DNA from: Candidatus Altimarinota bacterium
GTDB lineage: Bacteria > Patescibacteriota > Gracilibacteria > CAIRYL01 > GCA-016699755
DNA: 64,000 nt
Reading direction: 5' to 3'
Assembly (NCBI GenBank): GCA_963664295.1
Contig: OY760935.1
Span: 384,001-448,000 of the forward strand
Part shown: positions 28,594 to 64,000 of the stretch, piece after piece
Layout: each line of letters opens with the position of its first letter
How positions within the stretch are numbered: position 1 is the stretch's first letter
Made by a program: the position numbers and the translations under genes
Notes under the pieces: model-generated
What the model saw: the letters and a program-made list of their open reading frames with translations, nothing else
What the model was told of the DNA's origin: nothing
Database searches by the model: none

Positions 28594-29559
28594 TTAAATA
28601 ATTTGTGCCATTTTGTCTGCAACTTCTGCTTTTATTCTCTGGCTAAACACTACTCCTACATTAGTGGGCGTAATTCCCCGAACTCCTAAGCCTAAAAGCT
28701 TTAATGCAAGCCCATTAACTAATCTCTTAGGAACTAAAACATTAAGAGCAAGCCAATTAGAATTAGCAGTATCAGACACAGTTGGCGAAACATCAGCAGG
28801 TAAAAATTCTTTTACTTGATCCAGTTTGTCTTTTGGCACATTCATAGACACAAAACTAAGTGGCTCTTTTTCTGCACTCAAAACAGCCAACATAGAAACC
28901 GCCACTTCTTCAATAAGATTTCTTATTGTGGTGTCCTTGATTGCTTCTGGACTTAAAATCAACTGCGGATTACTTTTGTATAAAGTTGCTAACTCTTGAA
29001 ATCCGTTTGCTTTTAGCGTGCTTCCTGTTTCTGTGATGTCTGTAAATGCATCAGCCAAGCCAAAAATAGCTTTTGCCTCGGTTTTTCCTTCTGATGGATA
29101 AATATTGATATCATCAGGATTAAAGCCACAAAGTTCTTGTAATTTTTTGCTAGTTAAATTCGGCAATTCAGTTGCTATCACCTTTCCTCTGCAGGCTTCT
29201 ATTTCCGCTATGATTTCCGGATCAGAAGCAAGAACAAGTCTAGATGGTTTATTGGTTTTTTTGGAAAAAACCAAATCTGCAACAACTGGCAATTGCTCAA
29301 AACCAGCCTCTGCAATGTAATCACTACCAGTAATACCAGCATCAACTACGCCATTAGCAACATTGTTGGGCATTTCTTTACGATCCAGAACCCTAAAAAC
29401 CAAATCATCACTAACAGCAGATGGAACTTCGTATTTTCTACCTGGATCTTCTTTTAATAATCCAGATTTAGTTAAAACATTAACAGTTTTTTTGTTTAAA
29501 CTGCCAGAAGGAAGACCAAAATAAGTCTTGCCTGGAATTTTATTAAATTTATTAGTCAT
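28594..29559 (-). CDS. hisG: ATP phosphoribosyltransferase, long form
   Basis: LPSGSL, DAGITGSD, DITETGSTLKANG, C-terminal SPTVS regulatory domain. Confidence 0.93.
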   Translation of the reverse strand: MTNKFNKIPGKTYFGLPSGSLNKKTVNVLTKSGLLKEDPGRKYEVPSAVSDDLVFRVLDRKEMPNNVANGVVDAGITGSDYIAEAGFEQLPVVADLVFSKKTNKPSRLVLASDPEIIAEIEACRGKVIATELPNLTSKKLQELCGFNPDDINIYPSEGKTEAKAIFGLADAFTDITETGSTLKANGFQELATLYKSNPQLILSPEAIKDTTIRNLIEEVAVSMLAVLSAEKEPLSFVSMNVPKDKLDQVKEFLPADVSPTVSDTANSNWLALNVLVPKRLVNGLALKLLGLGVRGITPTNVGVVFSQRIKAEVADKMAQII

Positions 29560-60032: not shown

Positions 60033-61121
60033 CTATAAGAGTTTAATAAACTCATCAAATAAAAACTGGGCATCTTGTGGACCAGGACAGGCTTCAGGAT
60101 GAAATTGCACAGAAAAAATAGGTTTTGTTTTGTGTTTTATGCCCTCAACACTGCCATCGTTTAAATTCTTAAACCAAATTTTAAAATCCTTTGGAATTTT
60201 TTTCTCATCAACAGCAAAGCCATGATTTTGACTTGTCACATAACATTTTTCCGTTTCAATATCCTGCACAGGCTGATTTACACTTCTGTGTCCATAAGGA
60301 AGTTTATATGTATTACCGCCTAATGAAAGCGCTAAAATCTGATTACCAAGGCAAATTCCAAAACATGGAACACCTTTTTCATAAGCCCATTTAATATTTT
60401 TTGCAATTACTGGAGCAACTTTTTTTGGATCACCAGGGCCATTAGCAATAAAAAGTCCATCAAACTCATATTCGCCAGTGCTTGCATCAAAATTCCAAGG
60501 AACATGGATAATTTCTACTCCTCTTTTTAAGAAAGACCTTAAAATATTCCTTTTTATTCCTGTATCAACAACTAAAACTCTTTTTTTAATTGAATTTTTT
60601 GGCTTATAAACCTGCACCTTATCTATCGAAACCTCTGCCACAAGATTGCCCTCTTCTGGATTTTCGATTGTTTTTTTAGGCTCACCATCTTCAATAACAA
60701 TCTGACCAAGGCAAGTGCCATGTTCACGCAAAACCTGAGTTAATTCCCTAGTATCAATGCCAGCTATTGCAGGGACTTTGTTTTCTTTTAGCCAATCTGT
60801 AAGAGTTTTTTCACCGCGAAAATGAGAAAAATCCTTAGCAGGAGTGGAGCAAACAAGCCCTCGCACATGAATATTTTCACTTTCAAAATTTTTAATAATA
60901 CCATGTTCGTCTTTATCAAAAGGTGGAACCCCAACATTACCCACCAATGGAAAAGTAAAACAAAGTATCTGTCCTCTATAACTAGGATCAGTCAAAGAAA
61001 GCTCAAAACCAACCATGCCAGTAGAAAAAACCACTTCACCATCACTTGGTCCTTCATAACCAAAGCTTTCTCCTATAAATTCCTGACCTGTTGTTAATAT
61101 TAAGCGAGCTTTTTTTGGCAT
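60033..61121 (-). CDS. carA: Carbamoyl-phosphate synthase small subunit
   Basis: GEVVF.TGM, LTDPSY, NGPGDP, GICLG.Q, QFHPE. Confidence 0.96.
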   Translation of the reverse strand: MPKKARLILTTGQEFIGESFGYEGPSDGEVVFSTGMVGFELSLTDPSYRGQILCFTFPLVGNVGVPPFDKDEHGIIKNFESENIHVRGLVCSTPAKDFSHFRGEKTLTDWLKENKVPAIAGIDTRELTQVLREHGTCLGQIVIEDGEPKKTIENPEEGNLVAEVSIDKVQVYKPKNSIKKRVLVVDTGIKRNILRSFLKRGVEIIHVPWNFDASTGEYEFDGLFIANGPGDPKKVAPVIAKNIKWAYEKGVPCFGICLGNQILALSLGGNTYKLPYGHRSVNQPVQDIETEKCYVTSQNHGFAVDEKKIPKDFKIWFKNLNDGSVEGIKHKTKPIFSVQFHPEACPGPQDAQFLFDEFIKLL

Positions 61122-61188
61122 TTTCTTTCTTTAATTCCAACTTATTTTGCCCCAAAAAAACTTCTTAGTCGAGTGAAAAAAGCAAAAA

Positions 61189-62061
61189 TTATGCAAAAAC
61201 ACCAGTGCTCAAATATTTATCACCCCTATCCGGTAAAATAACAAGCACTTTTCCATTTTTAATCTTTTCCGCCACAGTAATAGCACCACCACTACTCAAA
61301 CCAGCAAAAATCCCTTCCACTTGCGCTAATTTTTTTGTATTTGCAAATGCCTCCTCATTTTCAATGAAAACTTTTTCACTAAAATAAGAATCATCAACAA
61401 TTTTTGGCATAAAATCATCATAAGGATTTTGAATACCTTGCACATTAAACCCCTTAGGCGGAATAATAGCCACTATTTTTGTATTTGGAGAATGTTTTTC
61501 AAAATATTTTGCCAAGCCCATAATAGTCCCACCTGTACCCACACCAGCCACAAGATAATCAATCTCTGGCATTTCCGCCAAAATCTCCTCTCCATATTGC
61601 AAATAAGCCTCAACATTATCTTCGTTCTCAAACTGGTTCGCAAACCAATATTCATCTGGGCTATCTGCCACCAATTCTTTTGCCTTGGCAATCGCCCCTG
61701 CTGTACCCAAGTTTTTATCAGTCAAAACAAGTTCAGCCCCAAGGCTACGCAAAATCTGCTTACGTTCTTCACTCATTGCCTCGCTCATAACAATCTTCAC
61801 CTTAAATCCAAGCGAAGTACCAATAGAAGCCAAAGAAATACCCATATTTCCACTTGTTGCTTCAAGAATTGTTTTTTCTTTGGTCAAATCCCCTCTTTCA
61901 ATTGCCCTATTTATCATATTACTACCAGCACGGTCTTTTATGCTCCCACCTGCTGGATTTGCTCCCTCGATTTTTGCATATATTTCTTGATCTGGAAAAA
62001 TTTTCTCCAAACGCACGAGTGGCGTGCTTCCTGTTGCTTTTTGCAATGTTTTTGTATTCAT
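61189..62061 (-). CDS. cysK: Cysteine synthase (CysK/CysM family, PLP)
   Basis: TPLV, NP.GSIKDR, EATSGN.G, GVGTGGT, G.SSG, PDRG.KYLS. Confidence 0.9.
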   Translation of the reverse strand: MNTKTLQKATGSTPLVRLEKIFPDQEIYAKIEGANPAGGSIKDRAGSNMINRAIERGDLTKEKTILEATSGNMGISLASIGTSLGFKVKIVMSEAMSEERKQILRSLGAELVLTDKNLGTAGAIAKAKELVADSPDEYWFANQFENEDNVEAYLQYGEEILAEMPEIDYLVAGVGTGGTIMGLAKYFEKHSPNTKIVAIIPPKGFNVQGIQNPYDDFMPKIVDDSYFSEKVFIENEEAFANTKKLAQVEGIFAGLSSGGAITVAEKIKNGKVLVILPDRGDKYLSTGVFA

Positions 62062-62080
62062 TTTGTTTAAATAAATTTAT

Positions 62081-62110
62081 AAAAAAATACTCTCAGCTTA
62101 TGTGAGAGTA
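62081..62110 (-). terminator. Attenuator terminator upstream of cysK
   Basis: UACUCUCA-CAUAAGC-UGAGAGUA followed by U7. Confidence 0.8.
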
Positions 62111-62151
62111 GTAGTTAAAATACAGTTTTGGCAAAAACTAAGTCACTACTC

Positions 62152-62199
62152 TCAAACGAGAGCGCAACAACATGCCAAAGCTATTTTTTTGATTTTCAT
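62152..62199 (-). CDS. Putative cysteine leader peptide MKIKKIALACCCALV
   Basis: ATG...TGT TGT TGC...TGA directly upstream of the attenuator and cysK. Confidence 0.8.
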   Translation of the reverse strand: MKIKKIALACCCALV

Positions 62200-62206
62200 C
62201 GTTTTT

Positions 62207-62235
62207 ATTGTAAATGATTTTTACGAAAAAGGCAA
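62207..62235 (-). promoter_or_regulatory. Sigma70-type promoter giving a leaderless leader-peptide transcript
   Basis: TTGCCT-17 nt-TACAAT-7 nt-ATG. Confidence 0.7.
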
Positions 62236-62508
62236 ACATTGTTCATCTTTTTCTATTCCTAATAATTGCAATGAATTCTTCTCTGTTGCTCCAATAATTT
62301 CTTCAACTTGTTGTTTTGTTTCCAATGAAAGACTTGGGCAAAACAAAACTCCTTGCTGTCCTGCCAATTCTCCAAGTCGCGCACAAGCGCCTTTCATACC
62401 CAAAGCTCCTAATTCATCACAATATGGCTCATAAACATAACCTTCTCTTATTCCAGTTATACGATCCGAAAAAGGCAATTTTGCTAAGTCAAAATTGTCA
62501 CAAGGCAT
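62221..62508 (-). CDS. Small hypothetical protein (5 Cys)
   Basis: 95-aa ORF; upstream TTGACA-16-TACAAT at 62532-62559. Confidence 0.5.
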   Translation of the reverse strand: MPCDNFDLAKLPFSDRITGIREGYVYEPYCDELGALGMKGACARLGELAGQQGVLFCPSLSLETKQQVEEIIGATEKNSLQLLGIEKDEQCLPFS

Positions 62509-62579
62509 AATTATTTAGAAACAGGATTTAAATTGTACGCCATTTAGCTGTGTTGTCAATACAAAGTTCGAGTCCTGTA

Positions 62580-62654
62580 TGGTACCCCCGACAGGAATCG
62601 AACCTGTATCTACAGCTTAGGAGGCCGTCGTTCTATCCATTGAACTACGGGGGC
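62580..62654 (-). tRNA. tRNA-Arg (CCT)
   Basis: Cloverleaf gcccccg...ctcctaa...ggttcgattcc...cgggggtacca. Confidence 0.95.
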
Positions 62655-62678
62655 AGGTTTTTACATTATTATATCCTC

Positions 62679-63236
62679 TTAAGATTTTTTAATCTGTACA
62701 TATTGAGTGTGTTCTTGTGGCAATTTGCTCTGCTCTATCTCAAAAACATCACCTTTTTCTGTGTTTTCTGCGCCCAATTCTTTTAATAATTCTTCAAAAA
62801 GCGTTTCATCTCCAGCCATAATCAATATTCGTGGGTCAATTTCTTCTGCAAATTTTTTGAGATCTTTATTGTTCATACCGTCTGTGCTTTTTGGTAAGAA
62901 CAAAATATCTGCATTAACTAATTTTTCAATTTTTTCTTGAGAAACAAGTTTTTTTAAATCTCCCAAAAAAGCTATGCGTATGCCATCAACCTCGAAATAT
63001 TGGGCTATTCTCTCCCCTCTTGTGTTGATTGATTTTACTGCTATGCCACCATATTCAAACTCGCCTGGCCAGGCTATTGCTGGCTTATCGCCAAATTTAT
63101 TATCATCTTTTATGTGTGAAAACAAACTTACTGCAACTTTATTGTCTACCTGACTTTCTGATTCCGGATTTATTAGTATTTTGTGCTTTTCTCCTTCGAT
63201 TGTGAAAGAAAAATTTCCTTGAAATGTGATTTTCAT
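62679..63236 (-). CDS. Degenerate MBL-fold (Lactamase_B_3-like) CPR protein
   Basis: I.WPGE.E..G, DGIRIAFLGDL, ..DILF.P, IDPRI.I. Confidence 0.7.
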   Translation of the reverse strand: MKITFQGNFSFTIEGEKHKILINPESESQVDNKVAVSLFSHIKDDNKFGDKPAIAWPGEFEYGGIAVKSINTRGERIAQYFEVDGIRIAFLGDLKKLVSQEKIEKLVNADILFLPKSTDGMNNKDLKKFAEEIDPRILIMAGDETLFEELLKELGAENTEKGDVFEIEQSKLPQEHTQYVQIKKS

Positions 63237-63249
63237 ATTTTTTATTAAA

Positions 63250-63999
63250 TTATTTTAAAATTATTTTACCTCCGAGGGAGTTTATTTTTTTGTCGATATT
63301 TTCGTATCCTCTGAAAATATAATTTATATTTGAGATTTCTGTTGTGCCCTTTGCACAGAGGCCTGCGAGCACCATAGCTGCACCTGCGCGAATGTCTTGG
63401 CTGGCTATTAGGGTGCCTTTTAGGTCGCTTTTTCCTATTATTAGTGCTTGATGGGGATTTAATAATTCTATTTGTGCTCCCATTTTCTCTAATTCGAACA
63501 AAAATGCAAATCTACCTTCGAATAATGTTTCAAAAACTCTTGATATGCCTTTTGCTTGGGTCATCAATACTGCAAATGGCGCCATTAAGTCTGTCGGAAA
63601 ACCGGGAAATACAGCTGTTTTTAAGTTTACTGCCTGATAATCTTTTTTAGGAGGTTTAATTTTTGCATAATCTGAATATATTTCTATATTTACTCCTGCT
63701 TCTTTTAGTTTTTGATAAAAAGAATCTAATTGGCTTTCTATTGCGCCTTTTACTGTGATTTCACCTTTTGTCACTGCTCCGGCAAGGATTAGTGTGCCTG
63801 CTTCGAGCATGTCTGGTGTTATTTCTATATTTGCATTTTTTAATTCTCCACCTTTTATTTGTATATTATGTGTGCCTGCGCCTTTTATTTCTGCTCCTGC
63901 GGATTGCAATGTCTCGCAGAGATTTTTTACATGTGGTTCTGAGGCGGTCATGCGTATTTCTGTTTCTTGTTTTAATGTGCTGGCAAGAATTATTATATT
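63250..63999 (-). CDS. murA: UDP-N-acetylglucosamine 1-carboxyvinyltransferase, 5'-partial
   Basis: EPHV..L, PD..EAGT, FPGFPTD, DIRAGAA, RGYE. Confidence 0.95.
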   Translation of the reverse strand, partial: NIIILASTLKQETEIRMTASEPHVKNLCETLQSAGAEIKGAGTHNIQIKGGELKNANIEITPDMLEAGTLILAGAVTKGEITVKGAIESQLDSFYQKLKEAGVNIEIYSDYAKIKPPKKDYQAVNLKTAVFPGFPTDLMAPFAVLMTQAKGISRVFETLFEGRFAFLFELEKMGAQIELLNPHQALIIGKSDLKGTLIASQDIRAGAAMVLAGLCAKGTTEISNINYIFRGYENIDKKINSLGGKIILK

Positions 64000-64000
64000 T

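Follow-up and report, generated by a model that had tools for sequence, protein, structure and literature searches.

The short open reading frame (ORF) in front of a cysteine synthase family gene in the window, by which we mean the whole 64,000-nucleotide stretch of DNA that was analyzed, very probably is the sensor of a classical ribosome-mediated transcription attenuator through which charged tRNA-Cys would control this cysK-family gene. Cysteine-sensing transcription attenuation in a CPR-like lineage had been proposed from the letters of the window alone, and the proposal is now backed by the conservation of the device, by controls for specificity, and by covariation and constrained folding. 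By every feature that sequence and folding permit to be tested, the device would belong with the classical leader-peptide transcription attenuators, such as E. coli trpL, Salmonella hisL, pheL, and thrL. Like these, it combines a short ORF that carries a codon run for the pathway product, here three Cys codons before a cysteine synthase family gene, with 1:2, 2:3, and 3:4 helices, an intrinsic terminator before the first gene, and a predicted stall position just 5' of segment 2. Unlike these, it would sense cysteine, it is found in a reduced-genome, CPR-like lineage without Shine-Dalgarno use, and its ORF probably lies at the 5' end of the transcript.

The leader and its alternative hairpins in the window

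The elements of the locus, all on the minus strand, are the following:

62508-62221, minus strand: 95-codon ORF with a good promoter, between tRNA-Arg (62654-62580) and the leader
62207..62235, minus strand: predicted sigma-70 promoter, TTGCCT (62235-62230), 17-nt spacer, TACAAT (62212-62207); weak alone
62152..62199, minus strand: leader ORF of 15 codons, MKIKKIALACCCALV, with the stop codon TGA at 62154-62152, read from the sequence
62164..62172, minus strand: three consecutive Cys codons (TGT TGT TGC; codons 10-12 of the leader), the predicted sensor
62158..62168, minus strand: segment 1, the last Cys codons and following bases, which pairs with segment 2 in ribosome-free RNA (folding)
62142..62154, minus strand: segment 2, which opens with the leader stop codon and pairs with segment 1 or 3 (folding)
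62123..62140, minus strand: small inner hairpin closing the antiterminator loop (folding)
62103..62113, minus strand: segment 3, antiterminator 3' strand and terminator 5' arm (-15.4 kcal/mol with segment 2; shuffle p = 0.01)
62088..62095, minus strand: segment 4, 3' arm of the 8-bp terminator hairpin (-8.4 kcal/mol)
62081..62087, minus strand: U7 tract with which the predicted intrinsic terminator ends, 19 nt ahead of the cysK ATG (sequence and terminator scan)
61189..62061, minus strand: cysteine synthase family gene (cysK/cysM, TIGR01136, E 6e-89), 290 aa, ATG at 62061

The promoter, the start codon 7 nt further on, and the poly-Cys peptide of the original prediction are all present. The promoter-like site has 9/12 consensus bases, and the 61000-64000 region holds 13 sites of such quality versus 10.2 +/- 3.3 in shuffles, so that the site alone is not significant. 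The leader ATG at 62199 lies 7 nt past the -10 box TACAAT, and transcription would likely begin at or beside it, which would make the transcript leaderless. In 16 of the 26 leaders described below, the best-scoring -10 box lies 5-10 nt ahead of the start codon, versus 51 of 351 strong-scoring genes of the genome, in a comparison that used a simple home-made scoring, and the genome-wide distances between -10 box and start peak at 6-9 and 21-25 nt. A stronger promoter at 62559-62532 (minus strand) drives the 95-codon ORF, which ends 22 nt before the leader ATG, and the terminator scan gave no terminator between this ORF and the leader; longer transcripts may therefore also enter the switch. With the -10 box 7 nt before the ATG, a leaderless start is at most likely, and the stronger upstream promoter may read through as well. 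The 95-codon ORF matched no family and had no Atlas match and no paralog. A tRNA-like sequence adjoins cysK also at the loci L080 and L081.

All pairings that had been proposed are present, in part with longer helices. The pairing of CUCUC (62162-62158) with GAGAG (62153-62149) is contained in a 1:2 hairpin of 11 bp (62168-62158 with 62153-62142, -10.7 kcal/mol) that takes in the Cys codons and that an outer stem brings to -19.9 kcal/mol. The antiterminator, originally drawn between 62154-62145 and 62112-62103, could be refined to 11 bp with -15.4 kcal/mol, and it shares segment 3 with the terminator, so that the two are mutually exclusive. Segment 4 is followed by the seven U residues 19 nt ahead of the cysK ATG as stated, and a terminator scan that uses only sequence and folding picked up this hairpin (62110-62088) with its U7 tract. 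When the RNA is free, the bases of the inner hairpin are paired with the stretch 62184-62173 near the 5' end of the leader ORF instead. The 181-nt region as a whole folds better than its shuffles (z = -3.0; 1 of 200 shuffles was as good).

That a stall at Cys would mask segment 1 and favor the 2:3 pairing is supported by constrained folding, in which 12 nt from the A site were masked as an assumed ribosome footprint and the RNA made before segment 4 was folded; masks of 10 and 15 nt were also tried. With the 12-nt mask, the terminator 5' arm is sequestered with a probability of 0.86-0.87 for A-site codons 5-12, which falls to 0.52, 0.34, and 0.04 at codons 13-15, and to 0.01 with the ribosome at the stop codon or 0.02 without a ribosome. 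For a footprint of this assumed size, the switch is thus located between codons 12 and 15, directly behind the last Cys. The full 2:3 helix forms at all three Cys codons with the 10- and 12-nt masks, and the 15-nt mask at the last Cys leaves 8 bp of it. When the full-length RNA is folded to equilibrium, the terminator keeps a probability of 0.39-0.66 for stalls at Cys, and readthrough therefore depends on 2:3 forming first. Stalls at the earlier Lys and Ile codons also antiterminate in these models, which are equilibrium models only, as does any stall at codons 3-12; the specificity therefore rests on the Cys run and on kinetics.

The switch could thus operate as follows. Transcription would begin at the leader AUG or close to it, presumably with a ribosome moving behind the RNA polymerase; leaderless start, translation, and coupling are all part of the model. 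When Cys-tRNA is ample, the ribosome would reach the UGA and cover segment 2, and after its release the 1:2 hairpin would hold segment 2. Either way, segment 3 would be free, the 3:4 hairpin would form, and transcription would end near 62081. When Cys-tRNA is short, the ribosome would wait at codons 10-12 and cover segment 1, and the exposed segment 2 would pair with segment 3 before segment 4 is made, so that cysK would be transcribed. The gene would respond to cysteine in this way, and its enzyme presumably synthesizes cysteine in vivo.

As to this enzyme, the original designation as cysK holds at the level of the cysK/cysM family, and the best solved relatives of the product are cysteine synthases, but the TIGR01136 match lies below all curated cut-offs. 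No cysE, metA, or metX was found in the genome, and the acceptor substrate is therefore not fixed by gene content. The carA gene follows 67 nt downstream (61121) and has a weak promoter-like site of its own. A carA-like 3' end also occurs just upstream of cysK in the family f18 (L007, L032, L041-L043, L046, L048, L053), and at L032 a promoter and a leader lie between the two.

Distribution and conservation of the cysteine leader

The TIGR01136 profile matched 56 of 401 genomes of the same class and, at a stricter E-value, 13 of 401 genomes of the phylum. After omission of nine genomes with E above 1e-50 and of five duplicate loci, 48 loci from 47 class genomes were examined; the other classes of the phylum contributed 12 loci, 2 of which were too short, so that 10 were tested. 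A further scan of the genome contigs contributed one locus only. As an outgroup, we used cysK on metagenome contigs, taken irrespective of taxon (80 loci fetched, 6 with too little upstream DNA). A uniform filter, requiring an ORF of 8-40 codons with CC or CxC and then a hairpin with a U tract, passed 21/48 class loci, 3/10 loci of other classes, and the locus L031, and none of the 74 metagenome loci. The same design was thus found upstream of cysK in related genomes, where the original prediction had suggested to look for it. By eye, 22/48 class loci have the leader (L066 being added), which gives 26 leaders in all, 25 of them beside that of the window, which represent 14 families and one unassigned record. 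L070 and L071 were not counted, as their Cys-pair ORFs lie inside an upstream coding sequence. Among the class loci, 27/48 fail the filter; many class loci that carry no leader sit immediately behind another gene, and some with upstream space of their own have none either.

Several controls speak for the specificity of this association. Within the same genome, the filter passes 9 of 999 genes, cysK among them, and the eight others were rejected by eye. A stricter filter left cysK as the only gene with a CC ORF among the 23 terminator-bearing of 431 upstream regions. When other residue pairs were used in the same filter, Cys pairs gave 24 loci and the next ones, Leu and Ser, gave 10. Cysteine accounts for 109 of the 570 codons across the 26 leaders, versus 0.9% of the codons in the long ORFs of the genome. 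The Cys codons are always in the Cys frame and mixed (TGT 74, TGC 35), and they alone are conserved among the leaders, in which the length (13-35 codons) and the other residues vary.

The 26 leaders and terminators had been picked by eye before the folding tests, and closely related ones among them are not independent. The antiterminator duplex was better than in 300 dinucleotide shuffles (p<0.05) in 22/26 leaders, the failing ones being L059, L036, L081, and L082. Cognate antiterminator strands pair with a mean of -14.1 kcal/mol versus -8.1 kcal/mol for swapped ones, and in 11 leaders the cognate strand is the best of all 26 candidate partners, while in 16/26 it is among the top two. This swap test is alignment-free, as the 23-sequence alignment, with 40% identity, was too divergent for column covariation; for the same reason, a subset of 10 alignable leaders was analyzed. 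In this subset, RNAalifold found the 1:2 and 3:4 helices unprompted, with compensatory changes in 8/13 pairs, and the covariation score of the 2:3 helix was equalled by 4/500 shuffles and drops when the helix is slid, which answers the call for covarying stems, while the percentage of paired 2:3 positions was not above the shuffles (99/500). Across the loci, segments 2, 3, and 4 vary together.

The switch is also seen in constrained folding of the whole set. The median terminator probability is 0.08 with a ribosome stalled at the first Cys, 0.98 with a ribosome at the stop codon, and 0.92 in free RNA, and with the ribosome at the stop it is above 0.75 in 25/26 leaders. In the free RNA of many other leaders, 2:3 still pairs as long as segment 4 has not been transcribed (median 0.78). 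The geometry in which a stall frees and the stop position covers segment 2 is shown by 21/26 leaders when the 12-nt footprint is assumed, and, counted from the first base of the final Cys codon in the first cluster, segment 2 begins at a distance of 9-21 nt in 23/26, in a search that started at 9. At L036 and L059, two successive hairpins follow the leader, and the folding models of L036 resemble a relay (2:3, 4:5, 5:6) more than a direct antiterminator. A second Cys cluster lies just after segment 2, near the stop codon, in 10/26 leaders (L002, L003, L005, L006, L049, L056, L064, L067, L076, L082). With a pause at this site, the ribosome would lie over segment 2, which would favor termination; the cluster is perhaps a dwell timer or an RNA-pairing constraint.

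These comparisons bear on the possibility that hairpin and U tract are a constitutive terminator for the transcript of the tRNA-Arg or of the 95-codon ORF, that the Cys ORF and the 2:3 pairing are by-products of the repeated GAGAG/CUCUC motifs, and that cysK has a promoter of its own. The stronger promoter at 62559-62532 would suit such an arrangement, as would the lack of a listed terminator for the 95-codon ORF itself, and UGUUGU repeats are of low complexity. However, the device accompanies cysK-family genes regardless of what lies upstream, with codons that are mixed and yet always in the Cys frame, it is absent from the outgroup loci, its segments 2, 3, and 4 co-vary, and where a promoter-like site is sought within 60 nt of cysK, the best one has its -10 box ahead of the U tract. 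We therefore regard a constitutive terminator as exceedingly unlikely.

A tree of 95 proteins was built with FastTree, with 35 sampled outgroup sequences and with one short sequence skipped, and in it the leader-bearing cysK genes are spread over several separate clades. One clade (support 0.999) unites the gene of the window with other Patescibacteria genes, 11 in all and belonging to eight families; 10 of these 11 genes have leaders, and the only cysK of the same family as the window gene (from G002) is distant in the tree and has no leader. This pattern would fit a joint transfer of gene and leader. The genes that follow leader-bearing cysK genes include hexapeptide-repeat (cysE-like) proteins at 3 loci, as well as TauE and Cys/Met PLP lyase (2 loci), and most others are unrelated. 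At L010 and L060, a Cys leader precedes a divergent cysK-like gene and then a Cys/Met PLP lyase, possibly representing a cystathionine route to cysteine. In the metagenome outgroup, cysK at L130 and L146 is preceded by a promoter-like site and a short ORF with CC, but by no terminator; these ORFs may represent a separate type of Cys leader from a different lineage.

Relation to known cysteine leaders

The original prediction had named leaderless poly-Cys ORFs of mycobacteria as a precedent, and this is confirmed by Canestrari et al. (2020; 10.1101/834739), whose text also outlines the 1:2 / 2:3 / 3:4 scheme of attenuation and describes the leaderless poly-Cys ORFs Ms5788A and Rv2334A, the latter located before cysK1-cysE. 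According to the same text, Ms5788A controls translation by hiding the Shine-Dalgarno sequence, and the mechanism at other loci is left open. The window device shares with these ORFs the consecutive Cys codons and the position before cysteine genes including cysK, and it would probably share the leaderless type and ribosome stalling as the sensor. In contrast to Ms5788A, it has a conserved terminator/antiterminator pair with a U tract and no predicted sequestration of a Shine-Dalgarno sequence, and the likeness considered here is one of design. It has thus to be considered whether the Cys-sensor ORF acts, in the mycobacterial fashion, on translation initiation of cysK, or on RNA stability, rather than on termination. 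The best-studied Cys leader hides a ribosome-binding site (10.1101/834739), and the terminator hairpin of the window ends just 26 nt ahead of the cysK ATG. However, in each of the 26 leaders the 3:4 hairpin runs into a U-rich tract, and the bases between this tract and the ATG are for the most part AU-rich and not included in the hairpin. No Shine-Dalgarno sequence was found before cysK, and no predicted helix extends to the cysK start. The genome also hardly uses Shine-Dalgarno sequences: such motifs precede only 2% of the 816 genes considered, and the usual anti-Shine-Dalgarno sequence is missing at the 3' end of the 16S rRNA. An action on translation or stability thus appears very unlikely, and the window device is not of the mycobacterial translational type.

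For Actinobacteria, Cys-run leaders were predicted before cys operons and cbs (Seliverstov et al., 2005; PMC1262725); according to that study, no terminator hairpin is conserved among them, and termination is suggested to depend on Rho. The leaders described here differ in that the intrinsic terminator is conserved, and no Rho gene was found in the 100%-complete genome. Other sources describe the cysteine case as translation attenuation (PMC13236596) or report amino-acid leader peptides from Proteobacteria and Actinobacteria, with Firmicutes added (PMC2965389), and PMC9094748, PMC12641178, PMC12641261, PMC4833913, and PMC13613805 added nothing further on the topic. Neither a terminator-based cysteine leader nor leader attenuation in Patescibacteria was found in the mostly open-access literature that was searched, and broad attenuation surveys may include predicted cysteine cases.

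Cysteine supply is controlled by cysteine status also through the cysteine T-box and S-box RNAs of Firmicutes and through the regulators CysB and CymR. The principle that cysteine status governs cysteine supply genes would be shared with these systems, and here the sensor would be the translating ribosome. Rfam gave no T-box, riboswitch, or other relevant family in the window region or at six loci, and no genes for regulators of the LysR type (CysB type) or the Rrf2 type (CymR type) were found in the genome.

Other leaders and the genomic setting

The genome is a single contig of 1.2 Mb that is 100% complete. Three sequencing runs of unspecified kind, all from one study, contain the stretch and may stem from the source sample, and no RNA run was listed for it. 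It contains nusG and cysS, and uL30 was not found in it; to our knowledge, CPR bacteria are without uL30. Since the leader ends with TGA, the genetic code is of relevance. TGA is a stop codon in this genome: it terminates 63 of 487 long ORFs, beyond which reading could continue for a median of 6 codons, and none of the 37 tRNAs reads TGA; on these two grounds, an alternative code was rejected. In some genomes of the same class, the cysK-family matches are full of in-frame TGA codons, and in-frame TGA in genes has been reported for Gracilibacteria (PMC6851277). Together with the missing uL30, this would suggest a Gracilibacteria-like member of the Patescibacteria.

A genome-wide scan for similar leaders, which the original prediction had also called for, gave two further amino-acid-matched ORFs besides the Cys leader. 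The leaders to be considered here are:

L168:326-382 (G000:C1, about 1101625-1101681), plus strand: aromatic-rich leader MNLQRNYFYGYWFFSPLG before a DeoC/LacD-family aldolase, from the genome scan
window 29714-29637, minus strand: hisG leader, an ORF of 25 codons with a His pair and a final His, then a strong terminator, with hisG at 29559
window about 37590-37510, minus strand: recF leader, TTGACA, 17-nt spacer, TAAAAT, GTG 7 nt later, an ORF of 17 codons without an amino-acid run, and a terminator

The aldolase behind MNLQRNYFYGYWFFSPLG is presumably an archaeal-type entry enzyme of the aromatic pathway. Its leader has a -10 box 7 nt upstream and both a terminator and an antiterminator, and the folding switches after the last aromatic codon. 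An aromatic-rich ORF with a terminator was found at 9 of 23 related loci, namely at the closest ones. For the hisG leader, we rejected the status of a proven attenuator, as the folding gave no clear antiterminator switch. The recF leader switches in folding at codons 8-9 and could, in terms of the folding model, be a general translation sensor. For the layer of leader-peptide regulation that had been proposed together with the his and recF leaders, these two are weak support, the hisG leader being without a folding switch and the recF leader without an amino-acid run; the conserved Phe/Tyr/Trp leader supports it better.

The recF leader also raises the question of whether the cysteine switch senses something other than the supply of Cys-tRNA, such as a general slowing of ribosomes or an effect of the nascent peptide, for example by metal or thiol binding of the CCC peptide or by antibiotics. 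A leader of the same genome that switches without an amino-acid run would be in line with this, as would the antitermination by any stall at codons 3-12 in the equilibrium model. However, the Cys codons are all that is conserved in leaders of variable length and sequence, the switch point is at the last Cys codon, the target belongs to a cysteine-synthesis enzyme family, and the same genome pairs Phe/Tyr/Trp codons with a putative aromatic-pathway gene in a like manner. A sensor of this general kind is therefore highly improbable.

For the sensing of charged tRNA-Cys by a terminator switch, the mechanism itself is textbook, and what would be new, as far as sequences can tell, is the combination of cysteine specificity with an intrinsic terminator and a probable leaderless start in a CPR lineage. 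It would extend the trp-style terminator switch to cysteine, as the published cases that we found act on translation or lack a terminator. As a tentative generalization, which we consider possible but rather doubtful, Patescibacteria may control amino-acid genes mostly via ribosome-sensed, often leaderless attenuators that replace transcription factors, with the terminator-based Cys device traveling with cysK between families and found on several clades of cysteine-supply enzymes, and with a dwell timer, in the form of the second Cys cluster, in part of the leaders. If this is true, Patescibacteria would have a tight transcription-translation coupling without Shine-Dalgarno initiation. The finding would show that ultra-small CPR bacteria, which are supposed to be scavengers, monitor charged tRNA and couple translation to transcription, and that cysteine is something such cells run short of and invest in making. 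With about 120 nt, the device would be small enough for a standard reporter, and it would thus offer a rare direct handle on regulation in an uncultured lineage.
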